A stretch of 64,000 nucleotides of DNA from Candidatus Kaiserbacteria bacterium (GTDB taxonomy: Bacteria; Patescibacteriota; Minisyncoccia; Phycocordibacterales; UBA2100): NCBI GenBank assembly GCA_016214605.1, contig JACROD010000023.1:32428-96427 (forward strand), in the 5' to 3' direction. The stretch's first letter is position 1. Each line of letters starts with the position of its first letter. The notes beneath the pieces are model-generated. The model was given only the letters and a program-made list of their open reading frames with translations. It was not told the DNA's origin and did not search any database. Position numbers and translations under genes: made by a program. Positions 5,633-62,474 of the stretch are shown here, piece by piece.

Positions 5633-5751
5633 AGGGATAGTGAATAGGGTTTAGCCACTAGCGACTAGTGATAAGGTTCCCCGATTGTATTTTATTTATA
5701 ATGTAATTCATAGGCGTTTTTTGATTTTTACTAATGGCTATACCCTAGTGG

Positions 5752-6118: not shown

Positions 6119-6475
6119 TTATTTTACAAATTCGATACGTGCGGATTCGGTGTGCTGCTTGCCAATCTGGCCCATGCGGACGATACGGGTATAACCACCT
6201 TGGCGGTCAGCATACCGCACTGCAAGCGTTTCGTGAAGCTTCTTGACGGCATCCGGGGCGCCTCCAAGGCGGCTGGATACAGTGCGCTGTGAGGCGACGG
6301 TGTTCTTCTTGGCCTGTGTCACCAATCGCTCCACGAAGGGGCGCAGCTCCTTGGCCTTGGCGATCGTGGTCACGATCCCCTCTTCAAGGACGAGTGAGCG
6401 GGCAAGGCCGCGCATAAGGCCGTTGCGCACGTGCTTCACGCGGCCAAATGTTCGTTTACGGTGAAAGTGACGCAT
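6119..6475 (-). CDS. rplQ: 50S ribosomal protein L17
   Basis: MRHFHRKRTFGRVKHVRNGLMRGLARSLVLEEGIVTTIAKAKELRPFVERLVTQAKK... This is L17 and sits downstream of rpoA as in the alpha operon. Confidence 0.9.
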   Translation of the reverse strand: MRHFHRKRTFGRVKHVRNGLMRGLARSLVLEEGIVTTIAKAKELRPFVERLVTQAKKNTVASQRTVSSRLGGAPDAVKKLHETLAVRYADRQGGYTRIVRMGQIGKQHTESARIEFVK

Positions 6476-6483
6476 AAATTTAG

Positions 6484-6567
6484 TTGACAGTTGACAGTTG
6501 ACAGTTGACAGAAAAACCGCGAACGACGTTGGTCGCCACTGTAAACTGTAAACTGTAAACTGTAAAC
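6484..6567. repeat. 84-nt composite element: (TTGACAG)x4, a 26-nt spacer, (ACTGTAA)x4 (copy A)
   Basis: The tandem heptamers were read directly. The two blocks are near-complementary (6/7 per unit), so they could form a long imperfect hairpin. It sits in the rpoA-rplQ intergenic gap. Confidence 0.85.
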
Positions 6568-6581
6568 TTGTTCATAATTAA

Positions 6582-7553
6582 TTACTGTATACGCAGGGTA
6601 AGGCCAAGGTTGGATAGAGCCCTTTTAATGTCTTGCAAGCCCTTCTGACCCATGCCCTCGATCGCGAGAAGATCATCTTCGCGCTTGCGCACGAGGCCGC
6701 CGACCGTACGGATCGATGCGTTGTCGAGCGCCGCTTCGACGCGCTGAGGGAGATTGAGCTCGGTGATGCGGGTCTTCAGGACCTCGGCATCCATCGGGAT
6801 GGATTTGTCTTCGTTCTTCGTGGCGTTTTCTGCAGCCATGACAGGCGCCTCAACAACTTCTTCCTCCTTGAATCCAATGACCGCCTTGAGCTGATGGATC
6901 ATGGTCTCGATTGAAGTCTCGAGGGCCTCGCGCGGAGAGATGGTGCCGTCGGTCTCAATGATCATGCGGAGGCGGTTGAAATCGGTGCGATCGCCGACGC
7001 GCATGTTTTCTACTTCGTAATTGACGCGGCGAATAGGGCTGAAGATCGCATCGAGTGCGATGGTGCCGATGTCCACACGCTCTTTCTGGTGGATTTCCTT
7101 GGGGATATAGCCGAGACCGCGTTCTGCGCGGATCTCGATCTCGAGATTGGTCTTGGATGTGATACTCGCTATGGGAGTCTCCGGATTGAGGATCTCTACC
7201 TGGCCAGGAAGCTTCAAATCGGCGGCAGTGACATCCTTCGGACCTTTGACCGAGAGATGGATGGTCTGCGGTTCATCGGTGAGAAGACGGAAGCGGATCT
7301 TGCGAAGATTGAGCAAGATAGTGACCACGTCTTCTTTGACGCCTTCGATCGCGGAGAATTCGTGGGCTACACCAGGGATCTTGACGTGTGTGACCGCAGC
7401 GCCCGGAAGAGAAGAAAGAATGATGCGGCGAAGACTGTTGCCCAAGGTAAAGCCGTATCCCGGGTAAAGACCGTCGATTTCATAGATACCGCTGCGCTCG
7501 GATTCGCTTACGATACGTGGCTTTCCAGGAAGTGCGATGTGATAGTCAGACAT
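6582..7553 (-). CDS. rpoA: DNA-directed RNA polymerase alpha subunit
   Basis: 323 aa with NSLRRIILSSLPGAAVTHVKIPGVAHEFSAIEGVKEDV... (alpha NTD) and a C-terminal ...VGGLVRKREDDLLAIEGMGQKGLQDIKRAL (alpha CTD HhH). Confidence 0.9.
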   Translation of the reverse strand: MSDYHIALPGKPRIVSESERSGIYEIDGLYPGYGFTLGNSLRRIILSSLPGAAVTHVKIPGVAHEFSAIEGVKEDVVTILLNLRKIRFRLLTDEPQTIHLSVKGPKDVTAADLKLPGQVEILNPETPIASITSKTNLEIEIRAERGLGYIPKEIHQKERVDIGTIALDAIFSPIRRVNYEVENMRVGDRTDFNRLRMIIETDGTISPREALETSIETMIHQLKAVIGFKEEEVVEAPVMAAENATKNEDKSIPMDAEVLKTRITELNLPQRVEAALDNASIRTVGGLVRKREDDLLAIEGMGQKGLQDIKRALSNLGLTLRIQ

Positions 7554-8278: not shown

Positions 8279-8713
8279 TTATACGCGACGTGCCTTGCGC
8301 TTGCGCGGGCCATTGTGCGGGACCGGTGTGTCGTCGGCGATGCGAGACACTTCGATTCCCTTTCCTGCAAAAGCGCGAAGGGCTGACTCGCGGCCTGATC
8401 CGACGCCGCGGATGACCACATCCACCTCCTTGATGCCGATAATATTGGCCTTGTCGCCCACAATCTCCCCGACCTTGGCGGCGGCAAAAGGAGTGCCCTT
8501 CTTGGCGCCGGAGAAGCCAAGGGAGCCAGATGACGACCATGCGACGGCGTTGCCGTTCTTGTCCGAGAGAAGGACTTTTGTATTATTAAAAGTCGCCTCG
8601 ATGTGGAGGGTACCCGCGACGATGTTTTTCTTGGCTACACGTGCCAAAGAGCGCGACTTGAGTCCCGCGTCTACGCCGCCGCCTGATTTTCGTATGATTC
8701 GTTTTTTGCCCAT
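8279..8713 (-). CDS. rpsK: 30S ribosomal protein S11
   Basis: ...GTLHIEATFNNTKVLLSDKNGNAVAWSSSGSLGFSGAKKGTPFAAAKVGE... Confidence 0.9.
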   Translation of the reverse strand: MGKKRIIRKSGGGVDAGLKSRSLARVAKKNIVAGTLHIEATFNNTKVLLSDKNGNAVAWSSSGSLGFSGAKKGTPFAAAKVGEIVGDKANIIGIKEVDVVIRGVGSGRESALRAFAGKGIEVSRIADDTPVPHNGPRKRKARRV

Positions 8714-8726
8714 GGTATTTTATTAG

Positions 8727-8810
8727 TTGACAGTTGACAGTTGACAGTTGACAGAAAAAGCATTGAGCGCGTCGAGGCCCACTGTAAACTGTAAACTGTT
8801 GACTGTAAAC
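8727..8810. repeat. Copy B of the 84-nt heptamer element: (TTGACAG)x4, a 26-nt spacer, ACTGTAA ACTGTAA ACTGTTG ACTGTAA
   Basis: Same architecture and flanks as copy A (...cttgttcataa then the TAA stop). It sits in the rpsM-rpsK intergenic gap. Confidence 0.85.
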
Positions 8811-8821
8811 TTGTTCATAAA

Positions 8822-9205
8822 TTATGTTTTCTCCAGCTTACGACGGCCGGATGTCATGGTCTTGCGGACGTTGCCGCGGACGGTGCGAGAATTGGTCTTG
8901 GTGCGTTGGCCGCGAGCGGGCAAACGGCGCAAGTGGCGGATGCCGCGGTGAGCTTTGATGTCGCGCAGGCGTCGGATATTGGCTGCAATTTCACGCTTGA
9001 GCTCGCCTTCTACCGGGCGCTTCTCGATAGCATCGCGCAAGGCTGCTTCTTGGGAATCGGTAAGATCCTTTGGTTTGGAGCCTGGATCAATACCAAGATC
9101 GATAAGAGTAGACTGCGCAAGGGGGCGTCCTACGCCATAGACCGCCGTGAGGCCAATCTCAAGGCGTTTATTGTCGGGGATGGTGATTCCTGAAATTCTC
9201 AACAT
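8822..9205 (-). CDS. rpsM: 30S ribosomal protein S13
   Basis: MLRISGITIPDNKRLEIGLTAVYGVGRPLAQ...IKAHRGIRHLRRLPARGQRTKTNSRT. Confidence 0.9.
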   Translation of the reverse strand: MLRISGITIPDNKRLEIGLTAVYGVGRPLAQSTLIDLGIDPGSKPKDLTDSQEAALRDAIEKRPVEGELKREIAANIRRLRDIKAHRGIRHLRRLPARGQRTKTNSRTVRGNVRKTMTSGRRKLEKT

Positions 9206-9630: not shown

Positions 9631-11202
9631 TCAAGCTCCGGCCGTGCCGGAAGCCGGTTGAGGGGCTTTGATATCGATCTTTATATCGTTTTGATTGGTC
9701 GGGAAGCTGCCTTTCCAGAAGGGTTCTATACGAGCGCGGGCACTCTCAATACCTGGGAAATTGGCTATAATGCTCTTAAAGGAGGCTTGATCGCGACCTG
9801 CGAGGGCCTTAGAAAGCTCGTCTTTGTCCACATTCCAGATCAATACGGCATCGCCTGTTGGTTTGAAGTGGAAAGGTGCTGTCCCTAGGGTACCTGATGC
9901 GATATCTGATGAGGTCGCGCCAAAGGTGTCTTTGTTGCCCATAAGCGTGAGCTTTGCGGTTTCTGCGTCGGCTGTTACGAGAGACCCGACCATCTGAGCA
10001 AAGATATCAGCAGATAAGATCGGTACGACAGAATGGATCCGCACGTGGATCCCGACACCATTGGATTCGTTGGTATCGGGAAGGTCTTGGTACGTGGTCT
10101 GGGCGAGACTATAGAATATGGTTGCGTTTGGGCCGGCGTTATCAGTGGCTTTTTGTATGGATGCTTGAAGGAGTCGGGTGCGAATATTTGCCGTTGCGGT
10201 TGCACGCGCTGCCGGGTCAGTGGCCGTTTTGTCTCCTGAGAATCCACCTGCCAATGGCGCAGGAGATTGGGCATGTACCCCTTTGTACATGGCATCGTTT
10301 GATTTGAGTCCGGGCAGGGTGAATTCGGTCCCTGAATTAACATTGTATTGTTGTCCTGTCTGGTCGGCGATGACCGTCACATTGACCTGGCCCGGAGTCG
10401 AACCCTTTTTACCGGGGACCACGATATCGTTGGGGGTGCGGAAGATCAGATGATCTGGGGTCTCAAAGCGTGTGGTAGCGATGAGTTTGACCGGAGCGGA
10501 TGAGTATGTGTTGTATACGGTGATCGATCCGGAGGCCTTGGTCTCTACATGGGTAGTGCCTCCCTGTGCGGGGATCACCTCTGAGTCATCGAGATCGATC
10601 GTTTGTACCGAATAAGGGAGTGTTCCCGAAGCTGCGGAAGTCTCCGGATACGCGGTGAACTCGGTAGTCTGGTCAAAAGTGACCTGATGGGAACGCGGGG
10701 TCACGGTGACGACTGTCGGGCGCGTCGCCAAGATCCCAAAGAGTGCGACGACAAGGACGAGTGCTCCGGCGATAAGCCAAATCCAAAGACGAGAACGAGA
10801 TGAGCGGGGCGAATGCGACATCGAGACTCCGGCCCCCGTCAGCGAAGAACCTTTTCTCGGATCAGGTGGTATAGGGCGCGGGCGTCCGCGCGATGGCAGA
10901 TTGATATTACGAATACCTCGAAGTCCGACTTCTTCTCGCAAGACATCTTGCTCCTCCTCAACTGATTCGTCTTCAAGGTCGGAATCGTCACCGGCATCAT
11001 CTTCGGACGCATGATGCGGGTGTGTGCCCTTTATTGGACGTTTAAGTACGATCTCATCGTCATCCTCGATAGTGTCGTCGATATCTTCATCTTGAGGCTT
11101 GATGCGCCGTGCGGGGCTGCCAGTGCGTGCTGGAGTCGGCTTGATCTTGCGAGCACTGCCCGCAGCTGGTGGAATAATGTCTTGAAAATAATCTTTTGCC
11201 AT
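9631..11202 (-). CDS. Hypothetical membrane-anchored protein (acidic low-complexity N-terminus, one TM helix, large extracytoplasmic domain)
   Basis: 523 aa. It has a D/E-rich N-terminus, a TM segment LWIWLIAGALVLVVALFGILA, and a T/S/G-rich ectodomain. No catalytic motif was seen. Confidence 0.4.
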   Translation of the reverse strand: MAKDYFQDIIPPAAGSARKIKPTPARTGSPARRIKPQDEDIDDTIEDDDEIVLKRPIKGTHPHHASEDDAGDDSDLEDESVEEEQDVLREEVGLRGIRNINLPSRGRPRPIPPDPRKGSSLTGAGVSMSHSPRSSRSRLWIWLIAGALVLVVALFGILATRPTVVTVTPRSHQVTFDQTTEFTAYPETSAASGTLPYSVQTIDLDDSEVIPAQGGTTHVETKASGSITVYNTYSSAPVKLIATTRFETPDHLIFRTPNDIVVPGKKGSTPGQVNVTVIADQTGQQYNVNSGTEFTLPGLKSNDAMYKGVHAQSPAPLAGGFSGDKTATDPAARATATANIRTRLLQASIQKATDNAGPNATIFYSLAQTTYQDLPDTNESNGVGIHVRIHSVVPILSADIFAQMVGSLVTADAETAKLTLMGNKDTFGATSSDIASGTLGTAPFHFKPTGDAVLIWNVDKDELSKALAGRDQASFKSIIANFPGIESARARIEPFWKGSFPTNQNDIKIDIKAPQPASGTAGA

Positions 11203-21058: not shown

Positions 21059-21096
21059 CCTCCTGTAATTTCACCAATTGGTGAAATTACAGGAGT
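21059..21096. repeat. 36-bp perfect palindrome cctcctgtaatttcaccaa|ttggtgaaattacaggag (copy 3 of the CTCCTGTAATT family)
   Basis: It has the same outer half-sites as copies 1 and 2, with compensatory changes in the centre that preserve the palindrome. Confidence 0.8.
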
Positions 21097-36212: not shown

Positions 36213-39028
36213 TACTACAACAGTAGAAATTCCCTATAACGATTTGGCAACCGCTGTTGGAACGCCTTTATTACATCTACAACAGTAGAAATTCCCTATA
36301 ACGATTTGGCACGTCGGGCTTTTGGCATACGTTTAATCTACAACAGTAGAAATTCCCTATAACGATTTGGCGTACTTCGGGCACAGCCAACACCGGATCT
36401 ACAACAGTAGAAATTCCCTATAACGATTTGGCTTTTGTGACCTGATCGCTAGTAACTCATCTACAACAGTAGAAATTCCCTATAACGATTTGGCCCTACT
36501 CGCTCAACATCACACACGGCATCTACAACAGTAGAAATTCCCTATAACGATTTGGCGCAAAGCAATGGCATTGTGGACATTATCTACAACAGTAGAAATT
36601 CCCTATAACGATTTGGCCTGACATCAGGTTGGGTTTGGGGTTACATCTACAACAGTAGAAATTCCCTATAACGATTTGGCCGAATACATGGGTGGGGTGA
36701 ATCGAGAATCTACAACAGTAGAAATTCCCTATAACGATTTGGCGAATCCGACGTATACGATCGGCGTATTATCTACAACAGTAGAAATTCCCTATAACGA
36801 TTTGGCAAAACAATTTTGCCATGCAGAATAGATCTACAACAGTAGAAATTCCCTATAACGATTTGGCGGTGGAGGCAATGATTAGCGGGTTCTATCTACA
36901 ACAGTAGAAATTCCCTATAACGATTTGGCGTCATGCACAACCCACATCTCTTTGATCTACAACAGTAGAAATTCCCTATAACGATTTGGCGAATTATCAG
37001 TACGATGAGGTAGCAATCTACAACAGTAGAAATTCCCTATAACGATTTGGCGCGCTCGCCTTCGATAACAATTATATCTACAACAGTAGAAATTCCCTAT
37101 AACGATTTGGCCGTGAAACACCCCGAGCGTCGTGTATATCTACAACAGTAGAAATTCCCTATAACGATTTGGCGATAACGGGCGTATACTTGGAGTACCA
37201 TCTACAACAGTAGAAATTCCCTATAACGATTTGGCGAAAGAAGCCGCGAACAAAACAAAATATCTACAACAGTAGAAATTCCCTATAACGATTTGGCCCG
37301 CAGGGGTAATAAACACGTCTTTATCTACAACAGTAGAAATTCCCTATAACGATTTGGCGTCCGGAGCACCAGACCTTCTCTCCATCTACAACAGTAGAAA
37401 TTCCCTATAACGATTTGGCAGTGCCCGGAGCGGAGGTTTATGAGATCTACAACAGTAGAAATTCCCTATAACGATTTGGCACGTGTGCACGTTGCTACTA
37501 CTATCAAATCTACAACAGTAGAAATTCCCTATAACGATTTGGCATGGTGGCGGGGGTAAACTCGTTATAATCTACAACAGTAGAAATTCCCTATAACGAT
37601 TTGGCGGTTCTCGAAGTCGTTGAACCATATATCTACAACAGTAGAAATTCCCTATAACGATTTGGCGCCAACGACGCAACGAAAGCCGCCTAATCTACAA
37701 CAGTAGAAATTCCCTATAACGATTTGGCGTGATTTCAACATCACCCAGGAGGACATCTACAACAGTAGAAATTCCCTATAACGATTTGGCAAAAGCCGAA
37801 GAAACGGCGTTTCAAACATCTACAACAGTAGAAATTCCCTATAACGATTTGGCGAATCCAGCGAAGGAGTAATAAAAAAATCTACAACAGTAGAAATTCC
37901 CTATAACGATTTGGCGTGAGCGTGGTATGTGTGAGGGCCAAATCTACAACAGTAGAAATTCCCTATAACGATTTGGCAGTGAACGTGCGCACCTCCCAGT
38001 CCTATCTACAACAGTAGAAATTCCCTATAACGATTTGGCCCCGAATTGGTAGCAAAATATAATATATCTACAACAGTAGAAATTCCCTATAACGATTTGG
38101 CCAATCAATCTTGATCCGCAGATTATTTATCTACAACAGTAGAAATTCCCTATAACGATTTGGCATCACAGCTTAATATGCAACCTACAATCTACAACAG
38201 TAGAAATTCCCTATAACGATTTGGCAGGTGTACGCACGCGAGGAGGCACAAGATCTACAACAGTAGAAATTCCCTATAACGATTTGGCACGGGTCGTGAG
38301 GGACGAGGATACCTATCTACAACAGTAGAAATTCCCTATAACGATTTGGCACCGATATTCTATAACGATTAGTGAAATCTACAACAGTAGAAATTCCCTA
38401 TAACGATTTGGCCAACGAAAGCGCGACGAAGCAGCGCGATCTACAACAGTAGAAATTCCCTATAACGATTTGGCACCCCGAAATCGTCGCGCAATATCAG
38501 ATCTACAACAGTAGAAATTCCCTATAACGATTTGGCTCGATCTCGATATTGAGATGGTAGCATCTACAACAGTAGAAATTCCCTATAACGATTTGGCTTT
38601 TTGTGAATGCTGATTATTTTCAATCTACAACAGTAGAAATTCCCTATAACGATTTGGCTATTGCATTCTCATCAAGTGCCTCCAATCTACAACAGTAGAA
38701 ATTCCCTATAACGATTTGGCTTAAAGGCTCTGATATTCAGGGCATATCTACAACAGTAGAAATTCCCTATAACGATTTGGCAGGGTCAAGACCACGTATC
38801 TCTCTTTATCTACAACAGTAGAAATTCCCTATAACGATTTGGCTCGTGCTAAGAGGAAAAATAAAATATATCTACAACAGTAGAAATTCCCTATAACGAT
38901 TTGGCCGATCGTGTAGCGTGATCGGTTTTTGATCTACAACAGTAGAAATTCCCTATAACGATTTGGCCAGCGCTAAATAGACATCTATATGGATCTACAA
39001 CAGTAGAAATTCCCTATAACGATTTGGC
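36213..39028 (-). CRISPR. CRISPR array with 46 copies of a 36-nt repeat (minus-strand sense GCCAAATCGTTATAGGGAATTTCTACTGTTGTAGAT) and 45 spacers of ~25-27 nt. It is transcribed on the minus strand with the leader at the high-coordinate end
   Basis: Counted directly. Period is ~62 nt. The repeat's 3' 19 nt (AATTTCTACTGTTGTAGAT) forms the short UCUAC-UGUU-GUAGA hairpin typical of type V-A repeats. The leader-distal repeat at 36213 is degenerate (atactacaac) and starts 2 nt after the cyoE stop. Confidence 0.95.
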
Positions 39029-39223
39029 TGCGGGGATGGCTTGGTTGAGCCGCAGGATACAAATGAGGCACGAAGGCACTCACGACCTGGTTGGCTCAAC
39101 GAAGCCATTGTAAGGCCTCATCAAAAAATAAAGACTCCGGTTTTCACCGATCCCCGCAAGCGAAATCGAATCGTTACAATACAACTTCCACTCTTGTTGT
39201 TATGAAATTTTCAAAGGTCAGAG
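39029..39223 (-). promoter_or_regulatory. CRISPR leader (~195 bp) between cas2 and the first repeat, AT-rich with inverted repeats
   Basis: 16-nt inverted repeats atggcttggttgagcc (39036-39051) and ggctcaacgaagccat (39093-39108). A second pair atgaggc (39063-39069) and gcctcat (39115-39121) is interleaved with the first. An A/T-rich tract lies at 39120-39135. Confidence 0.5.
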
Positions 39224-39505
39224 TTAGTCGAAAACAACCACTTCTTTATCGTCGTTTTCTGCATAGCCGTACCGAACAATTTTCTTGCGGCACTGCTCGC
39301 AAAGAGGCACGATCATGACGCTATCCGCGCCCGTGAACTGCTTCTTATAATGCAATTCTATCTCCTTTTTAATGTTGCGCAAGATGCGATCACTATTACG
39401 TATCTCGTACACCGAGAATTGCAATTTGCGCCCAAACTTGCACAAAAACTTGGAAAATTTAGTCCGTACCTTATCGTTGGAGATGTCGTAAGATGTAACG
39501 AGCAT
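39224..39505 (-). CDS. cas2: CRISPR-associated endoribonuclease Cas2
   Basis: MLVTSYDISNDKVRTKFSKFLCKFGRKLQFSVYEI... is the Cas2 N-terminal beta-strand with Asp and the (R)LQxSV core. Its position next to cas1 and the array supports the call. Confidence 0.85.
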   Translation of the reverse strand: MLVTSYDISNDKVRTKFSKFLCKFGRKLQFSVYEIRNSDRILRNIKKEIELHYKKQFTGADSVMIVPLCEQCRKKIVRYGYAENDDKEVVVFD

Positions 39506-39510
39506 AATGT

Positions 39511-40467
39511 CTATATGTTAAATACGGGAAATTCCACTTCACCTTCGTTCATGACGTACCTATAATACCCATGTACGTATTTATACAAATCCTCCTTATG
39601 ACACATAATTGTTTCCATAAAGATCTCGGCATATTTACGACTCGCCTCGTATGAGAGTGTGTATCGTCCCTTCACCACTGTAAAATCCTTCGGGTCTATC
39701 TGCTTTAGATTCCACGCTTTGAGGAGTTGCTTGTCGATGATGCAGCGGAATGGCTCCATAATGTCACAGGCAAGCGACTTGCGCTGGAAGAAAAGCTTGT
39801 GATAAAAACCCTTATAGGTATCGAATCCATGTAGGCGGAGCAATGAATCGGTGCAATTGAATAGCATCGAATATCCGATGTCTAGCATAATATTGTGTAT
39901 GTCCCCCTTGGTGCGTGGGGCTCGTCGCACCCAACCTGTTTCGCCGTAATATTCTTCAAAAAACCTCCGCGAAGCATTACCCTCAAGTCCACGCAGAGTC
40001 TCATCACTACCCGCGCCCTGTATGGCGAGCAGTGTAGTATCCAGATCAGCTACCATACCATCTTTTTTCTTTCGTTCTTTGAGAAGTTTTGCTTGATTGG
40101 AAACTTTGTTTGCCATGAGCAATCGTGCCATGCTCATTTCCACATCCTCATTCCACGCATACTGGCGACTACGCAAGAGATAGTGCCCCTCTGCCACCGC
40201 ACCAAAGCTGGCATATGTCTCCAGATTGTCCTTGAGAAAGAAGAATGACACGCCGTGTTTGACCCCGTCACGCATGAGGCCGCTCGTGATGGTAATGTCC
40301 CCTATCACAAACGCGCCAAAGACCTTGTGACACGATGCCCTATTGATCACCTTGTCGTCCTTCATAAAGACCAAATTGTCATTAAAGAATTTGATCTTGT
40401 TGAAAACGCCACGCTCGGCCCGTATGAAGAGAAGTTGTTTTTCTTTGAAGTCAGGTAGTGAAATCAT
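39511..40467 (-). CDS. cas1: CRISPR-associated integrase Cas1
   Basis: 318 aa with ...GFDTYKGFYHKLFFQRKSLACDIMEPFRCIIDKQL... This corresponds to the Cas1 GxH...R.SL..DLMEPFRP.VD catalytic region. Confidence 0.9.
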   Translation of the reverse strand: MISLPDFKEKQLLFIRAERGVFNKIKFFNDNLVFMKDDKVINRASCHKVFGAFVIGDITITSGLMRDGVKHGVSFFFLKDNLETYASFGAVAEGHYLLRSRQYAWNEDVEMSMARLLMANKVSNQAKLLKERKKKDGMVADLDTTLLAIQGAGSDETLRGLEGNASRRFFEEYYGETGWVRRAPRTKGDIHNIMLDIGYSMLFNCTDSLLRLHGFDTYKGFYHKLFFQRKSLACDIMEPFRCIIDKQLLKAWNLKQIDPKDFTVVKGRYTLSYEASRKYAEIFMETIMCHKEDLYKYVHGYYRYVMNEGEVEFPVFNI

Positions 40468-40474
40468 ATGCGTA

Positions 40475-41014
40475 TTACCATGCTAGTGCTCCATAAATGC
40501 TTTCTTCGCAGCGTATACAGGAGTGTCCGTGGACGGCAGACATGTCGAAAGCGCGCATGTCTGCGAGCACTTGCTCAAAACGTGTTTTTTCAGCTTCGCC
40601 AGGGATGGGTATTTCATAGCGCTTGTTATCTTCGAGTGAGTGGAGAAATAGCTTGTCTATCTCGTATCCCATTTCGATCATGCAGTAGTATTGGGCGTAG
40701 AGCTGGTATCGGTAGCCGTCTCGGATCTCCTTGATGCGCGTTTTGCGTTCGATGAGGTGCTTTTTGTCGGCGTCGTATAGGTCAATCCGACCTGCCACCG
40801 CAAGCCTTTCGGAGTAGACTTCCATTCCCCCGATAAACCGACGTGCAGTGGAGTAGGTGTCGTCGTCGAGATGTGCATGGTTGGCCCGGCCGACGATCTG
40901 GGGCGTTTGATGGTAGGTCTTGGTGTTGAATCCTTCATAGAGATTATGGAGATAGATGGAGACCGGACAATACAAAAAGTCGTTGATATTGGAGATTTTG
41001 ATGTACGGTTCCAT
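40475..41014 (-). CDS. cas4: CRISPR-associated Cas4 (PD-(D/E)xK exonuclease with Fe-S cysteines)
   Basis: N-terminal FLYCPVSIYLHNLY, a core D...E.K (RIDLYDADKKHLIERKTR), and a C-terminal ...HGHSCIRCEESIY cysteine cluster. Confidence 0.8.
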   Translation of the reverse strand: MEPYIKISNINDFLYCPVSIYLHNLYEGFNTKTYHQTPQIVGRANHAHLDDDTYSTARRFIGGMEVYSERLAVAGRIDLYDADKKHLIERKTRIKEIRDGYRYQLYAQYYCMIEMGYEIDKLFLHSLEDNKRYEIPIPGEAEKTRFEQVLADMRAFDMSAVHGHSCIRCEESIYGALAW

Positions 41015-41203
41015 GGCTTGATAACAAAATAGCGACCCGCTAGGATCGCCACCTTGTTATCATGTGGTTGATCTTACGTCAAGTGTGTTGTATTTATGAT
41101 TAGGCCCTTTGTATCTCTTTTGTGGTTTCCTACTGTATGGACGATGCTGATTGTAAGCCACGATAAGCTATCCCAGTCTCTTGTAGAGACTCTAAAGGCC
41201 TAA
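41015..41203 (-). promoter_or_regulatory. Structured 189-bp spacer between the cas12a stop and the cas4 start. It has nested inverted repeats (a possible terminator or attenuator) plus a TTGACG box
   Basis: Outer arms gattaggccctttg (41097-41110) and ctaaaggcctaatc (41191-41204). Inner hairpin agtctcttgtagagact (41174-41190) lies 14 nt after the cas12a TGA. A second IR gataacaa...ttgttatc is at 41021-41062. Confidence 0.4.
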
Positions 41204-44200
41204 TCATAGTTGTATTCCGTGTTTAGTTGCCCATTCGTCCCACTGTTCTTTACTGATGTATAAATCCGGTTTTTCTGGATTATCATTTATACGGCCAATG
41301 GTGATAATACCCTTTCGAGCAATGTTGTAGGCGCCGAGAGAGTCGCCATTCGCCAGATTGATGTCACATGGATTTGGCTTTGGCGCATTGAGGGTTGTGA
41401 AGAATGGAGCAACGGGTGATGCAATGAAGTCGGTCTTATCAGACGAATTTCGGATATCGAGAATGATATTGAAGATATAGATGAATGCCTGGAAGAAGTT
41501 CCTTTCTCGCCCGTCAATCATCTTATAGCTGCTGAGTTCTCCATTTTTCATCTTTTCCTCGATCTTACTTTTTAGGTCGGTCGCTATTTTGTCCTCAAAA
41601 TTCCACGCCTCAAACAGAGACTTGAACATATCGTTCGGATTTACATTCCGAGCATTCCAAACACCTTGTTCGTTTCTCTCGCGACGAATACGTGGCACAT
41701 CTGCATATACCGTCCATAATTTCGATATCGTTTTAGTTTTCTCCTTCTTATCTACAAGTCTAACTGGATCGTAAGTGATAAAGTAGCTTTGCCTTTCTTC
41801 GTTCCAACCAATAGCATCGAAAGATTTAATTGCTTTTTCTAACTTCTCTTTGGTAGCTGAGTTACTGACATACACATTCTTACGGAATCCGGTGACAGGA
41901 TCTGTCGTCGACGTGTATGCTGCTTCAGTGTAGAAGACGATACCGGTCTGATTACCCATGTCTTTGAACGACTCAAACGGCGCGGCGAGTTGATAACCGT
42001 TTAGGACACCGCCTATTTCAAGCTCCGGCCTGTCTTTGAACACCATGTGACCGAGCTTGTCTACGAGTTGCTTTTCGAGCTGTTGGTATACACTCTTTTC
42101 AATACCACTACGAATTTGTTTGAAACGCATGTTGAGATTTTCGAGCACGATAATCGCGTTGTGTTCTATGGCGAGGTCGCAAATCTTTTTGACAGCATGC
42201 GATACATATCCACGCTTGAGGTCTTTGATCTGGCGCACCGGTAACCATGCTTGGCGATTGGCAGTACGTTCTTTCTCCTTGCCATCAAGAAGCTTGTGAT
42301 AGTCGGTGCCGCTAATCTCATTTAGACTCCCTTCGTCGACAATCACACCTTTTTGATTGATCACTGAATAGTATGCGAGATGCTTTTCCCCGCGATCAAT
42401 GCCGATGATGCAAAAGTCTTTTGCGCGCTTCGCGATAAGCTCGGCATTGAGTATCTTATTGAATTGATATTGGCTACGCATTGCATCCGTCCCCGCGTTG
42501 ATCTTGATTGGCACATGGAAGAATACCTTGTCTTCGGTAAAACGTTTGTATTTGGTGATGTCTCGCGGGAAGTTGCGTTTTTCTTTTTCCGGCTCCACCG
42601 ATGCCTCGCGGTAAAAAATCTCCGCATTTCCGGCGAGTTGTACCACAGTCGGTGTCTGTGCGAGATTTGCTTCGGAAAAGAGTTGTGAGAAGTAGAGTGA
42701 ATGCACATTTTTAGTACCCGTTGATCCGCTCGCAAAGTCTTTGCTTTTAATTTTGAACAAATACATCTCTCCTTTTGCAACATGCTCATCAATGTAGTCC
42801 GCATCTACTGGAACAAACTTTATCTTGTAATTTTGCTGTGCAATGTGGTCATTAAATTCACCGATACCCACATATTCCTCTGGTTTCTTCCATGTGAGTC
42901 CAAACGTCTCTTGGTAACCACCTTTGGCGAGACAGTTTTGATAGTACGCAATTAGTCTGGCAGTTTTATTCGCATCAAACTGATTTTTCCACGCACTCTG
43001 ATCTTCCTTTTTTGACTCTTGGAACTTGGCATACTCATCTTTAATCGCCTGCACTTCTGGTGTCCATCCAAACGTTTTTTTGTTGGTTTCCGCGAAAGCC
43101 ACCTTGGGAATCATGCGCTTTGGATCTGGAAACAGTTTGTATTCCATTTTTGAATATCCATTATCACCTGCTCGATACGCTTCGGGGTGTTTCTTCTCCT
43201 CCAGTATGTCACTAAACTGTTTACGCATTATCGCAAGATAATAAGCGCCGTCTTTTCGCAGAATAATGCCCAGCTTCTCTTGCTCTTTGTTTTTGTCCCA
43301 CCCGGAAAGAAGGGTGCCACATTCGAAGTTGAGTTTGACTTTGTTTTCATCGGATGGTTTTTGAGTGAGAAAATTGCGCGCTACATTGTAGAGCGGAAAG
43401 AAAATGTCTTTCGCATATTCTTCGCGATAGGCATCGTAGAATTTTGGGTCGTAACCCTCTTCTGGCTCAACCCAATCTCTCCTGTTTTCCGTCGCAAAGT
43501 ATTTGATCATACGATGCGCATCGCGACAGCTATTAAGGTACGCGCTGATACGATTGATCTGAATTGTCCCCTCATCTTCTTTTTCCTTACGCCTCTGCGA
43601 AAGTGCGCCCGTTGTCCAAAAGGAATCTTTTTTGAGGTCCGCCAAATCAACTGCACTTTCGGCAACACGCGCATCAAGTTCACTCAAGAGTATTGTAATG
43701 AGGTTTGTAAAGTGCCCGACACTCTCGACAAATGCTGCATGTTTCAATATCTCTGACCTGAACAACTCACTCGGTTTCTTCCCTTTATTTATTTCGTTCA
43801 CATCGAGAGCATTCTGTACGTGTTGAAGGGACACAAAATCAGGTAACTCCCCACCTCCACCCTTCGCCGTGCCAACCGCATCGAGAAGTGCGCCCTTGAG
43901 TACACTCCAGTTTGTGAAGTACTTACTCGAAATCGTATTGATCGCACCACTGGAGAAATATATTTTTGACCACTCATACCCACTTTTTTCTGGCATAGTA
44001 AGTGCGTCACGAATGAGCGCCAACATCTTCGTGCAGTAGGCGACATTTTCTTCAGAAAATACCTTTAGTTTCTCCCAGAGTTGGGCATCACCTTTTATCA
44101 CGAGCATCTCAAACACGTCTTTTTCACTCAAAATTTGATTGTGTAATTTTGCCAAAAAACTGATTTTGTTTCCAGTTTTCTGACGGTATTCGTTTACTTT

Positions 44201-45079
44201 TTTATTCACACTTTGCTCAAGCTCGGTACTGCCTCCAAGAACAGTATTGTAAACATCGATTCCGGCTTGCAAAAAACAACGATGATAGGCCTCAACATCG
44301 GTCAGCGCAAGAATCTCGGAATCAGTGAGTCCGATAGCGGTTTTTACTTTCTTATACTCGGATTCAACGATGTGTTTATTGCGCAAAAACTTTTCGAGAT
44401 TTTCGACTACACGTGTAGCCACCGCCGTGCTCGTACCGTCACTCTTGTAGAAATTCTCTCGCGTCTCGTTAAACTTTCCAAAATATGTGAAGAATCCAAA
44501 GAATGTCGAAAACACTTGTGTATCTTCAGCAAACTTATCCATTAGGATATTCAACACCGCTTCGTCAGTGAGAATTTTACAGCCTGTAGATGAGAACTTG
44601 ATTTTCTTTTGCTTGCCTGTGCGCCCAACGGATTCTATTTCTTCATATTGTGCCTTCCACTCATCGCCCATCTCATCAAAGAGACCTGCGACCTCGTACA
44701 AAAGAGCTTTTCTTTCTTTCTCATATGCGCTCTTCTGTTCTTTCGTTTGTGTCTTTTTGGCAACACCGATAAGGGCGTTATATGCACGTACAAAACTTGC
44801 AAGTTTTAACGCACTGACTTTTGATTCTGTAAAAGACGCTTGCACAAACAAACGATGTAATTGGTCCAATCGCACCTTGGTCTTTTGATAGTTTTCCTCG
44901 ACTTTTTTATCTTCTTCAAAAACAGCTTTTAAGGATTCGGAAGTTTTGCCTTGCGGCACCAACTCAAACCGCAATGTCTTCGACAATGCGTATTTGTGAG
45001 TAAAGCTGTCAAACACGGACTTTTGTCCTTCGGGATTCTTTCCACCGGACACAGGCGATCTCTGGGTCATGGTATTCAT
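41204..45079 (-). CDS. cas12a: Type V-A CRISPR effector Cas12a (Cpf1), 1291 aa. It is a single RuvC-like nuclease with no HNH domain
   Basis: The N-terminus FDSFTHKYALSKTLRFELVPQGKTSESLKA (the WED strand conserved in the Cas12a family). RuvC-I CIIGIDRGEKHLAYYSVI. RuvC-II AIIVLENLNMRFKQIRSGIEKSVYQQLEKQLVDKL. Then GIVFYTEAAYTSTTDPVTGF. RuvC-III INLANGDSLGAYNIARKG near the C-terminus. The family Lys-rich helical REC region is present. It lies immediately upstream of cas4-cas1-cas2 and the array. Confidence 0.9.
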   Translation of the reverse strand: MNTMTQRSPVSGGKNPEGQKSVFDSFTHKYALSKTLRFELVPQGKTSESLKAVFEEDKKVEENYQKTKVRLDQLHRLFVQASFTESKVSALKLASFVRAYNALIGVAKKTQTKEQKSAYEKERKALLYEVAGLFDEMGDEWKAQYEEIESVGRTGKQKKIKFSSTGCKILTDEAVLNILMDKFAEDTQVFSTFFGFFTYFGKFNETRENFYKSDGTSTAVATRVVENLEKFLRNKHIVESEYKKVKTAIGLTDSEILALTDVEAYHRCFLQAGIDVYNTVLGGSTELEQSVNKKVNEYRQKTGNKISFLAKLHNQILSEKDVFEMLVIKGDAQLWEKLKVFSEENVAYCTKMLALIRDALTMPEKSGYEWSKIYFSSGAINTISSKYFTNWSVLKGALLDAVGTAKGGGGELPDFVSLQHVQNALDVNEINKGKKPSELFRSEILKHAAFVESVGHFTNLITILLSELDARVAESAVDLADLKKDSFWTTGALSQRRKEKEDEGTIQINRISAYLNSCRDAHRMIKYFATENRRDWVEPEEGYDPKFYDAYREEYAKDIFFPLYNVARNFLTQKPSDENKVKLNFECGTLLSGWDKNKEQEKLGIILRKDGAYYLAIMRKQFSDILEEKKHPEAYRAGDNGYSKMEYKLFPDPKRMIPKVAFAETNKKTFGWTPEVQAIKDEYAKFQESKKEDQSAWKNQFDANKTARLIAYYQNCLAKGGYQETFGLTWKKPEEYVGIGEFNDHIAQQNYKIKFVPVDADYIDEHVAKGEMYLFKIKSKDFASGSTGTKNVHSLYFSQLFSEANLAQTPTVVQLAGNAEIFYREASVEPEKEKRNFPRDITKYKRFTEDKVFFHVPIKINAGTDAMRSQYQFNKILNAELIAKRAKDFCIIGIDRGEKHLAYYSVINQKGVIVDEGSLNEISGTDYHKLLDGKEKERTANRQAWLPVRQIKDLKRGYVSHAVKKICDLAIEHNAIIVLENLNMRFKQIRSGIEKSVYQQLEKQLVDKLGHMVFKDRPELEIGGVLNGYQLAAPFESFKDMGNQTGIVFYTEAAYTSTTDPVTGFRKNVYVSNSATKEKLEKAIKSFDAIGWNEERQSYFITYDPVRLVDKKEKTKTISKLWTVYADVPRIRRERNEQGVWNARNVNPNDMFKSLFEAWNFEDKIATDLKSKIEEKMKNGELSSYKMIDGRERNFFQAFIYIFNIILDIRNSSDKTDFIASPVAPFFTTLNAPKPNPCDINLANGDSLGAYNIARKGIITIGRINDNPEKPDLYISKEQWDEWATKHGIQL

Positions 45080-60996: not shown

Positions 60997-61106
60997 TATA
61001 CATCGCGTATAAGATCTACTCCTCGTTATTCCACAGCGCCCCGTAGATTCCCATGTCCTAGCTATAGCTAATTTTAGGGAATATTCGTAGAGTGCGGTGT
61101 GAGACA

Positions 61107-61523: not shown

Positions 61524-61644
61524 GACACCCTCCTCCTTTGGTTATCAAATGCCCTACAGGGGCACCTTGTCTTTCTAGCTTATACCACCCCTGCAGATCG
61601 GTGGCAATATTCCTAAGATTAGGCGGTCGCTTATTATAAGGAAT

Positions 61645-62238
61645 ATGAGTACAGGTGGAAACAAGATGGAAATTGAATCAGGAAAGAGGAGGCGGAAAAA
61701 CGCAATCCAACAAACCGTGTTGGCGGCGGTCGGTATGGCAGGCTTGCTTACGGTCGCCGCCGTCGCCCCCAATATTTTCCAGGCGTTTCCGCGCATCATT
61801 GGCAAGCAACGCTACAAGCTCGCCTTTCAGGCCCGTACTGCTGTGCAACGCCTTGTGATAAAAGGGCATGTGCAGTGGGTCGAAACGAGCGGCAAAAAAT
61901 ATCTGGAGATCACTGAGAGCGGCCAGCGTGCCCTGGACCTATCCATTGCCCGCGCGAGCGCACCGGCCCGCAAGAAGCGCCGATGGGATCGCCGCTGGCG
62001 CATGGTTATCTTCGACATCCCCGAACGCCGCCGCGCCGTACGCGAACGACTGCGTATACTTATGCATGAGTTCGGCTTTCTCCGACTCCAAAACAGCGTC
62101 TGGATCTCACCGGATGACTGCGAGGAATTGATCGCACTCATCAAAGCCGATCTCAAGGTCGGCAAAGACATCCTTTATGTGATCGCCGACTCGATAGAAA
62201 ACGACACCTGGATCAAAAAACATTTCGAGCTTTCGTAG
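61645..62238 (+). CDS. PaaX-like C-terminal domain protein with a Cas2-like core (paralog of 1970..2554)
   Basis: ...AAVGMAGLLTVAAVAPN...KKRRWDRRWRMVIFDIPERRRAVRERLRILMHEFGFLRLQNSVWISPDD. It shares the AAPN and WRxVxFD(I/L)P...RLQNSV motifs with the first paralog. Confidence 0.5.
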   Translation: MSTGGNKMEIESGKRRRKNAIQQTVLAAVGMAGLLTVAAVAPNIFQAFPRIIGKQRYKLAFQARTAVQRLVIKGHVQWVETSGKKYLEITESGQRALDLSIARASAPARKKRRWDRRWRMVIFDIPERRRAVRERLRILMHEFGFLRLQNSVWISPDDCEELIALIKADLKVGKDILYVIADSIENDTWIKKHFELS

Positions 62239-62306
62239 GATCTCCTCAGACAGACTCTGCCTACATATTCTGCATATTGTTTTTTGCATTTCTGCTCTGT
62301 GCAAAA

Positions 62307-62474
62307 AATATTCCTATTTATTAGCTATAGCTAGTGGATAGGAATATTTCTTTGCTGATCGTTTACGGACATAAATCCCATATTCCTATTCATAGGCTAT
62401 AGCCACCTCTTAGGAATCTTTCTGGGGTTCGTAATATTCCCTATTATTAGCGACCGCCTAGACTTAGGAATATG
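62307..62474. repeat. Three tandem ~40-bp inverted-repeat elements with half-sites AATATTCC(C)TA / TAGGAATAT. Related copies are at 61046-61091 and 61591-61633
   Basis: 62307-62349 is aatattcctat-N20-ataggaatatt. 62381-62418 and 62434-62474 are analogous. 61591-61633 is nearly the reverse complement of 62434-62474. Confidence 0.7.

Follow-up and report, generated by a model that had tools for sequence, protein, structure and literature searches.

Why the rpoA and rplQ genes of a Candidatus Kaiserbacteria genome should be held apart by a 106-nt gap composed largely of tandem heptamers is the question raised by the locus studied here, which lies in a 64,000-nt stretch of contig JACROD010000023.1 (hereafter the window, to which all coordinates refer). 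The gap (6476-6581) extends between the rplQ start codon (CAT on the plus strand, 6473-6475) and the rpoA stop codon (TTA, 6582-6584), and the original prediction, which had described it as unusually long, was borne out, as the operon junctions of relatives normally measure 1-30 nt. The heptamers claimed for this gap were likewise confirmed, with four TTGACAG units (6484-6511) and four ACTGTAA units (6538-6565) on either side of a 26-nt spacer (6512-6537) on the plus strand (82 nt in total). Tandem Repeats Finder recovered a period of 7 in both arms (4.3 and 4.4 units, 100% match) over a span of 6482-6568 (87 nt), identifying them as tandem 7-nt units in intergenic DNA. With two mismatches or fewer allowed, the arm 14-mers matched 10 times, compared with 0.30 and 0.11 expected from shuffles; the arms are far above chance, and the element is real and non-random. 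The answer favored here is that a foldback repeat resembling a miniature inverted-repeat transposable element (MITE) sits at a stop/start junction and is tolerated since ribosomes translate through it; the inserted-repeat part by itself is highly likely, and the reading as a whole is held with about even confidence.

Because the operon is encoded on the minus strand, the arms of this first copy (copy 1) read (UUUACAG)4 and (CUGUCAA)4 in the mRNA, on either side of GGCGACCAACGUCGUUCGCGGUUUUU, and the regular mismatch between them is U.C. In mRNA sense, the whole insert (6476..6581, minus strand) comprises a 5' arm of (TTTACAG)x4 (6538..6565) that contains no stop codon in any frame, a 26-nt core (6512..6537; GGCGACCAACGTCGTTCGCGGTTTTT) with a weak GC hairpin followed by U5, and a 3' arm of (CTGTCAA)x4 (6484..6511). 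The 3' arm is followed by 8 nt (CTAAATTT) before the rplQ ATG, and the TAA within these 8 nt ends 4 nt before that ATG. The upstream gene is rpoA (6582..7553, minus strand) and the downstream gene is rplQ (6119..6475, minus strand), which encodes L17 and has no Shine-Dalgarno motif. Across the insert runs an open frame of 31 codons (MNKFTVYSLQFTVATNVVRGFSVNCQLSTVN) closed by TAA (6480..6575, minus strand), which begins 6 nt after the rpoA stop and finishes 4 nt before the rplQ ATG.

Comparison with relatives identified the element as an insertion. Syntenic loci (designated L with a number, as are the loci from other phyla) were collected by exact-protein look-up (6 loci) and by a metagenome scan (80 loci), and six junctions from rpsM to rpsI, normally 1-30 nt in length, were measured. 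The window RpoA was nearest to proteins of Candidatus Kaiserbacteria and Paceibacteria (top match 95%), and an exact look-up in public assemblies found neither this RpoA nor the 31-amino-acid (aa) frame on record. In L119-L122 and L125, whose RpoA is 94-95% identical to that of the window, the 106 nt are replaced by a 6-nt gap (TAA-ATCTTT-ATG), and similarly short rpoA-rplQ gaps were detected in L210 (10 nt; RpoA 92% identical), L123 (9 nt; 90%), L211 (6 nt; 89%), and L127 (4 nt; 87%); contig L209 ends exactly at the rpoA stop and is uninformative for the gap. Among the 91 tabulated relatives together with L210 and L211, the rpoA-rplQ insert was common only to the window and L039, a Kaiserbacteria metagenome-assembled genome (MAG) with a 91% identical RpoA. 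Given that relatives with 87-95% identical RpoA have a gap of only 4-10 nt, the element is a patchy insertion and not a conserved operon signal.

The element is not unique, as a second copy fills the 108-nt rpsM-rpsK gap (8714..8821, minus strand) between rpsM (8822-9205, minus strand) and rpsK (8279-8713, minus strand). Copy 2 has the arms and flanks of copy 1 (in mRNA sense, the 5' edge reads ATGAACAAG and the 3' edge CTAA) around a different 26-nt core. Its 5' arm reads TTTACAG TCAACAG TTTACAG TTTACAG (8781..8808), its core reads GGGCCTCGACGCGCTCAATGCTTTTT (8755..8780), and its 3' arm is again (CTGTCAA)x4 (8727..8754), followed by CTAATAAAATACC (13 nt) before the rpsK ATG. An open frame of 31 codons plus TAA (MNKFTVNSLQFTVGLDALNAFSVNCQLSTVN; 8723..8818, minus strand) was also present in this copy, starting 3 nt after the rpsM stop and with its terminal stop 9 nt before the rpsK ATG. 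At the rpsM-rpsK junction, an orthologous insert was found in L124 (RpoA 88% identical), the gap in L123 is 4 nt, and L119 and L120 contain a 47-nt stretch resembling a remnant. Across relatives, the states of these sites are nearly all-or-none, in that a site either carries the 96-nt frame intact or has a gap of no more than 10 nt.

Further copies were searched for by scanning one genome per species with the pattern TTGACAGTTGACAG-N15-45-ACTGTMAACTGTMA, the module also being written (AGTTGAC)n-core-(GTCAACT)n. At least 118 loci in at least 12 phyla were recovered. Among the matches listed, the module was most abundant in Bacteroidota (Parabacteroides, Bacteroides, Prevotellaceae, Paludibacter, Saprospiraceae, Chitinophagaceae, and Cytophagales), and the matches listed also included Cyanobacteria (Chroococcidiopsis, Microcoleus, and Microseira; loci L001, L032, L079, L088, and L108), Thermoleophilia, Acidobacteriota, Gemmatimonadota, Chloroflexota, Oscillospiraceae and other Clostridia, Myxococcota, Desulfobacterales, Desantisbacteria, Omnitrophota, and three Kaiserbacteria MAGs. 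From the matches listed, 88 elements were parsed, and exactly four heptamers were counted in the left arm of 46 and in the right arm of 53; core lengths peaked at 18-20 nt and at 28 nt, and the ends were TAG and CTA in 39/88 each, flanked on the outside by A or T. The family form can thus be written T-TAG-(TTGACAG)4-core-(CTGTCAA)4-CTA-A. Elements usually start 0-10 nt past a stop codon, and in about half of the co-directional cases they also abut the next start codon. One Saprospiraceae MAG harbored over 20 copies, whose 19-nt cores are nearly identical. The element has traits of a MITE, namely a size of about 100 nt, 28-nt inverted arms, canonical TAG...CTA ends, dispersed copies (two in the 64 kb of the window and more than 20 in the Saprospiraceae MAG), and empty orthologous sites in relatives. 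The family is apparently undescribed and extends over many phyla; a search of the literature did not find the heptamer dimer in a relevant context. In viral contigs, the module had no match, and the 19-mer of core A matched one unrelated prophage family, lacking heptamers, at about chance level. In addition, a direct array of about 40 GTCAAC[T/C] units was observed in Desulfobacterales bacterium HSG2 (L047, 2590-2860), which indicates that the heptamer also forms long one-sided arrays, comparable to the long ones that TAACTGA is reported to form in Bacteroidetes and Cyanobacteria.

Beyond the window, copies were recovered from the Kaiserbacteria MAGs L039, L051, and L055, the metagenome contig L124, and the unclassified MAG L041. 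Seven copies are accordingly available from the candidate phyla radiation (CPR), located between rpoA and rplQ (copy 1 and L039), between rpsM and rpsK (copy 2 and L124), between pilT and pilC (L051 and L055), and in L041; the last is cut by the locus end, leaving six complete copies. These CPR copies differ from the family form in a consistent manner. The standard 5' end, T-TAG-(TTGACAG)n, has every frame blocked by a stop (one TAG and two TGA), whereas all seven CPR copies have the same orientation as their flanking genes, have the 5' side ATGA..[A/G/C]AG-(TTTACAG)4, and have lost the TAG and TGA stops. In the window lineage, the 5' arm has TTTACAG for TTGACAG and AAG for TAG; with these changes no stop codon remains and the regular U.C mismatch arises, so that the mismatch noticed at first reading is due to the G-to-T change that abolishes TGA. 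In all six complete CPR copies, the distance from ATG to stop is 96 nt, giving 31 codons; 0-10 nt separate the upstream stop from this ATG, and the end of the frame lies 0-9 nt short of the downstream ATG. At L051 and L055, the TGA of pilT overlaps the ATG of the frame as ATGA, and the downstream junction of L055 is again an ATGA overlap. Among asymmetric members of the family in co-directional gaps, L012 and L074 are oriented as the CPR copies, and L074 has stops.

The frame is set differently against the heptamers at different loci (MNKFTVYSLQFTV at one, MRKSLQFTVYSLQ at another), and a phmmer search of the 31-aa peptide against 1.84 billion representative proteins returned the L039 copy as its only relative. 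The recurrent feature is an open frame with placed ends and not a conserved protein. Shine-Dalgarno-like motifs preceded 11 of 65 long open reading frames (ORFs) in the window, compared with a background of 13%, and the genome is without detectable Shine-Dalgarno use. Many co-directional junctions of the window are 2-10 nt long; native operon junctions have that length or overlap, and the junction spacings of the mini-frames fall within that range. In 56 expanded operon gaps of relatives, an ATG frame of at least 12 codons ending no more than 25 nt from the next start was found 28 times in sense and 12 times in antisense, with the same criterion giving a mean of 8.2 and a maximum of 13 in shuffles of these gaps.

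As such, the following course of events is proposed. A non-autonomous foldback repeat of about 100 nt, with four tandem heptamers per arm and a short core, was inserted between translationally coupled genes. Ribosomes leaving rpoA would re-initiate at the ATG on the 5' edge of the element, translate the 31 codons while melting the hairpin on the way, terminate 4 nt upstream of the rplQ ATG, and re-initiate there, so that coupling without Shine-Dalgarno sites would outlast the insertion. The insertion itself was demonstrated, as were the family membership, the architecture, the orientation, and the position of the open frame; we infer both that the frame is translated and that translation is the reason for the tolerance of the insert, and translation of the frame is plausible but unproven. 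The relay is the most interesting reading, and it would account at once for the orientation of the copies, their regular mismatch, their ATG, and the position of the stop. The more specific proposition, which joins a single foldback family (four AGTTGAC units per arm, TAG...CTA ends, at least 12 phyla) with a translated, stop-free relay in CPR bacteria that do without Shine-Dalgarno sites, is put forward only tentatively.

The degree of conservation bears on this proposal in more than one direction. Copy 1 and its L039 counterpart are identical at 91 of 96 positions (95%) and their cores at 25 of 26, compared with 79-84% nucleotide identity in rpoA, rplQ, and rplM; between the window and L124, the core of copy 2 is identical at 23 of 26 positions without indels, compared with 74-82% in the flanking genes. 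A third foldback insert of the window, of another family with CCACTAG/CTAGTGG arms, occupies the rplM-rpsI gap (5633..5751, minus strand; repeat I4), and at the same window-L039 distance it keeps its ends and has its core completely replaced. The TTGACAG-type copies are therefore either constrained or recent independent arrivals at the same sites. Five core types were distinguished among the seven CPR copies, and cores are common only to orthologous sites; since cores appear to be site-specific, orthology with constraint is favored. Each core occurs once in the window, and in six copies no local alignment between core and flanks was better than shuffles at p < 0.05. A guide-like or fold-back origin of the core from flanking DNA was considered and rejected on finding no core-flank similarity.

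Several observations weigh against the relay proposal. The conservation of the core between the window and L039 exceeds what a relay frame alone would need. Read in sense, the element is open in all three frames, which makes the open frame by itself weak evidence, and the seven CPR copies come from one subfamily, so that their shared features may reflect inheritance and not independent selection. That L124 has kept the frame is not significant, since 21% of simulants with 17 substitutions stayed intact. When the expanded gaps were grouped by sequence cluster (n = 30), the ORF criterion was satisfied by 14 in sense, 7 in antisense, and 2 in reversed sequence, which makes the sense versus antisense contrast only modest. 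Stop triplets are depleted on the sense strand of the inserts (385 vs 534, p = 0.0035 at cluster level), but native rpsD-rpoA gaps have the same bias, so this test is not specific to inserts and was not used as evidence. As for mobility, neither an autonomous parent nor a transposase was found, and at the 118 loci listed no arm pair 200-6000 bp apart enclosed an ORF, a weak search because only 8 kb per locus was covered. The target-site duplication fits TA or TAA (TAA...CAAC-TAA), or a 7-bp CTATGAG direct repeat in L055, and is ambiguous; since TA is palindromic, its duplication is indistinguishable from an inverted-repeat end.

Several of these points would suit a selfish or neutral foldback repeat of about 100 nt that has no role, is harmless, owes the uniformity of its arms to slippage and gene conversion, and carries the frame incidentally. 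Absence from most close relatives, the lack of compensatory changes, and the loss of the fold in L124 are consistent with such a repeat; some ORF is expected with every sense frame open, and Bacteroidota copies whose perfectly palindromic arms have stops in every frame fill tight gaps without any ORF. It is a possible though somewhat doubtful account, however, as it does not predict that all seven CPR copies would share one orientation, purged stops, and an ATG at the 5' edge, that all six complete ones would stop at the downstream ATG, that the element would be better conserved than its flanking genes when a CCACTAG-type core has been fully replaced at equal evolutionary distance, or that the sites would be nearly all-or-none. 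A purely local product of replication slippage, with no history elsewhere, was the fallback of the original prediction and was found to be wrong. Heptamer simple repeats are over-represented in bacteria (PMC4692102), but the two window copies have common flanks, related copies occur in L039, L051, L055, L124, and L041, and the loci in other phyla form a dispersed family with defined ends, a defined size, and preferred 4 + 4 units. Slippage can be regarded as already refuted, and its probability as vanishingly small.

The pairing of the arms invites readings at the RNA level, and the hairpin potential that had been noticed is real. The arms of copy 1 pair at 6/7 positions per unit, forming a stem of 28 bp in which each heptad has a U.C mismatch, and the insert folds with a minimum free energy of -34 kcal/mol (z = -4.5), which none of 200 shuffles matched. 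A cis-acting hairpin tuning the alpha operon, whether as a partial terminator or attenuator, an RNase III site, or a stabilizer that sets the rpoA:rplQ ratio, would be consistent with folds of -31 to -36 kcal/mol in five of six copies, with the weak terminator-like sites in both window cores (a small GC hairpin of 5-7 pairs and then U5, in mRNA sense), and with a core more conserved than the flanking genes. Yet none of the 26 stem pairs is altered at both positions, and shuffles reach the same paired fraction, which indicates that the pairing reflects inverted-repeat identity and not a selected RNA fold; L124 folds at just -13.7 kcal/mol, though its core and frame are kept. Moreover, the closest relatives are without the element, which is found at unrelated junctions too (pilT-pilC, for example); the sequence after the main stem is CUAAAUUUAUG, with no U-tract, and the L041 core is without a U-run. 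The ordinary terminators of the genome are GC-rich hairpins with long U-runs, unlike the element, and Rfam gave no match, whether gathering thresholds were applied or E values up to 1 were allowed. The attenuator or processing site suggested at first is thus not supported, and a cis-acting RNA of any such kind is unlikely. With regard to promoters, the four literal -35 hexamers (TTGACA x4 on the plus strand) that had been read as an antisense sigma-70 promoter stack are present, but no -10 element follows any of them at 16-18 nt, and no plus-strand promoter site was detected in the element; minus-strand matches of the promoter scan (TTTACA-17-TACAGT, 9/12) are repeat artefacts. In addition, canonical copies bear TTGACAG on both strands, and the family is commonest, among the matches listed, in Bacteroidota, which use a different promoter consensus and are not known to use TTGACA promoters. 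A promoter stack is thus very unlikely indeed. The heptamers might instead form a binding array for a factor that recognizes them on DNA or RNA, possibly the mobilizing enzyme, given that the same heptamer, with a preference for four units per arm, recurs in at least 12 phyla and that the 3' arm ends 8 nt from an ATG without a Shine-Dalgarno motif. A factor has been proposed for TAACTGA repeats located 5' of starts without Shine-Dalgarno sites, with the S1, Csp, and Csr families as candidates (MacGregor 2015, PMC4679880), and the two heptamers have AACTG in common. No candidate protein was identified here; furthermore, the start-proximal arm is sequestered in the hairpin, the L124 element persists with diverged heptamers, and other CPR inserts have the same architecture with unrelated heptamers, all of which make a binding array quite improbable.

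Inserts of other kinds were also observed in the ribosomal operons of the window and its relatives. The rplM-rpsI insert of the window has an ATG-initiated frame that runs from the core into the 3' arm, and in L039 both the rplQ-rplM and rplM-rpsI gaps contain CCACTAG/CTAGTGG-like inserts whose ends are common with those of the window and whose cores are unrelated. A larger second insert family of 120-235 nt was detected in several ribosomal-operon gaps of relatives (L138, L165, L183, L124, L126, L139-L141, L153, L155, L168, L173, L175, and L182), with up to four per operon among the gaps listed. Its members have conserved ends, TTATGAGCGAAGCGAATTACAAG..ACCCAGCACC[variable]GGTGCTGGGTGTAAG..AAAATCTAAC, and lie directly 5' of the next ATG; in L051, a fragment of this family adjoins the heptamer element. 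The architecture of inverted tandem 7-mer arms around a core was further found with unrelated heptamers in L137, L140, L154, L155, L158, L166, L168, L169, L190, and L201, with units such as GTATCTN/ATACNAA, AGTAGNN/CTACTAA, AGCGAAA/CTATTCG, CACAAAN/TTTGTGN, and TAGGCGN/CGCCTAR. The heptamer-arm foldback architecture is thus more general than the TTGACAG unit.

Elsewhere in the window, a near-perfect palindrome (CTCCTGTAAnn...AATTACAGGAG, with arms of 18-21 nt and no loop) occurs three times in intergenic DNA (1906-1947, 2579-2616, and 21060-21095) and may represent a further family of small repeats or, alternatively, a site bound by a protein. Inverted repeats also form a cluster (61042-61087, 61607-61646, and 62303-62421) with the common motifs ATATTCCTA / TAGGAATAT and GCTATAGC, and the region 62299-62428 folds at -45 kcal/mol (z = -6.3). 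The window also harbors a type V-A CRISPR-Cas locus (36215-45079), comprising an array of about 45 repeats of 36 nt (36215-39028), Cas2 (39224-39505), Cas1 (39511-40467), and Cas12a/Cpf1 (1291 aa; 41204-45079), together with a 179-aa ORF (40475-41014) that had no Pfam hit and is a candidate Cas4. Upstream of the infA-rpmJ-rpsM block in the clade of the window lies an ORF of about 500 aa (9631-11202), conserved in L123 and L124, with a weak Baseplate_J-like Pfam match (E = 6e-4, below the curated cut-off). No tRNA genes were detected in the 64-kb window.

If the relay proposal is true, such a repeat lives in essential, tightly coupled operons and is either kept intact or cleanly deleted, and for this reason would be better conserved than the adjoining genes. 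The CPR copies suggest a rule of invasion, which is to be translatable, to begin at the upstream stop, and to finish at the downstream start, and this rule would explain the odd regular mismatch. Moreover, a defined heptamer-armed element common to distant phyla, including the ultra-small CPR genomes, calls for a shared mobilizing or generating mechanism, and we know of none for such elements. For annotation, repeat insertions are a better reading of the long gaps in CPR ribosomal operons than regulatory leaders, which holds even if the relay is wrong. Small palindromic repeats and heptamer arrays are both long-standing unexplained features of bacterial genomes, and the present findings make them more testable.

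Among the closest systems described in the literature are the TAACTGA direct repeats found 5' of starts without Shine-Dalgarno sites in Beggiatoaceae, Cyanobacteria, and Bacteroidetes (PMC4679880). According to that study, these arrays have 2-6 units, lie a few nucleotides from the start, and differ among related strains by indels in 7-nt steps; they carry stops in all frames in forward orientation, one inverted example being given, and their patchy phyletic spread suggests horizontal transfer, with no known vector. Heptamer repeats near start codons have also been reported in Nostoc (bioRxiv 10.1101/2022.06.06.494920). The element described here is similar in that its arrays end close to starts without Shine-Dalgarno sites (8 nt and 13 nt before the next ATG, with Shine-Dalgarno-like motifs at background frequency), its spread is patchy, and its unit matches TAACTGA at 5/7 positions; it differs in having two inverted arrays around a core and, in the CPR version, in being stop-free in sense. 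The unit CAACTGT/TTTACAG is neither TAACTGA nor any of STRR1-3.

The STRR are cyanobacterial heptamer repeats that Mazel is said to have described in 1990, and Elhai reportedly described in 2008 the small dispersed repeats (SDRs) of Nostoc, embedded in tandem heptamers and said to be confined to Nostocaceae. Both resemble the present element in their intergenic tandem heptamers and short core (21-27 nt in SDRs and 26 nt here, a comparison of length only), SDRs are likewise suspected to be very small and mobile, and STRR3 (CAACAGT) is one base apart from CAACTGT (6/7). The occurrence of the module in at least 12 phyla including CPR, the preferred 4 + 4 units, and the TAG...CTA ends set it apart from SDRs as reported. 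Correia, ERIC/IRU, RUP, and REP/BIME are small palindromic repeats that occur inside operons, and MITEs and small palindromic repeats are often co-transcribed. The element resembles MITEs and the Correia, ERIC, RUP, and REP repeats in its size of about 100 nt, terminal inverted repeats, many copies, intergenic location, and variable presence among relatives, and differs from them in its arms of tandem heptamers and in that no parent insertion sequence or RAYT gene was found. As for the proposed relay, termination-reinitiation coupling is an established operon mechanism, and the spacings of the mini-frames (0-10 nt, with ATGA in L051 and L055) match those of native junctions; to our knowledge, there is no described case of an inserted repeat that supplies an intermediate frame in it. 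A parallel in that respect is provided by the Rickettsia palindromic elements, reportedly described by Ogata in 2000, which are said to insert in frame inside genes and to join the host protein: they are palindromic selfish repeats that reportedly survive in a compact genome by way of translatability, as is proposed here, the difference being that the present element would be translated as a separate mini-frame between two genes.

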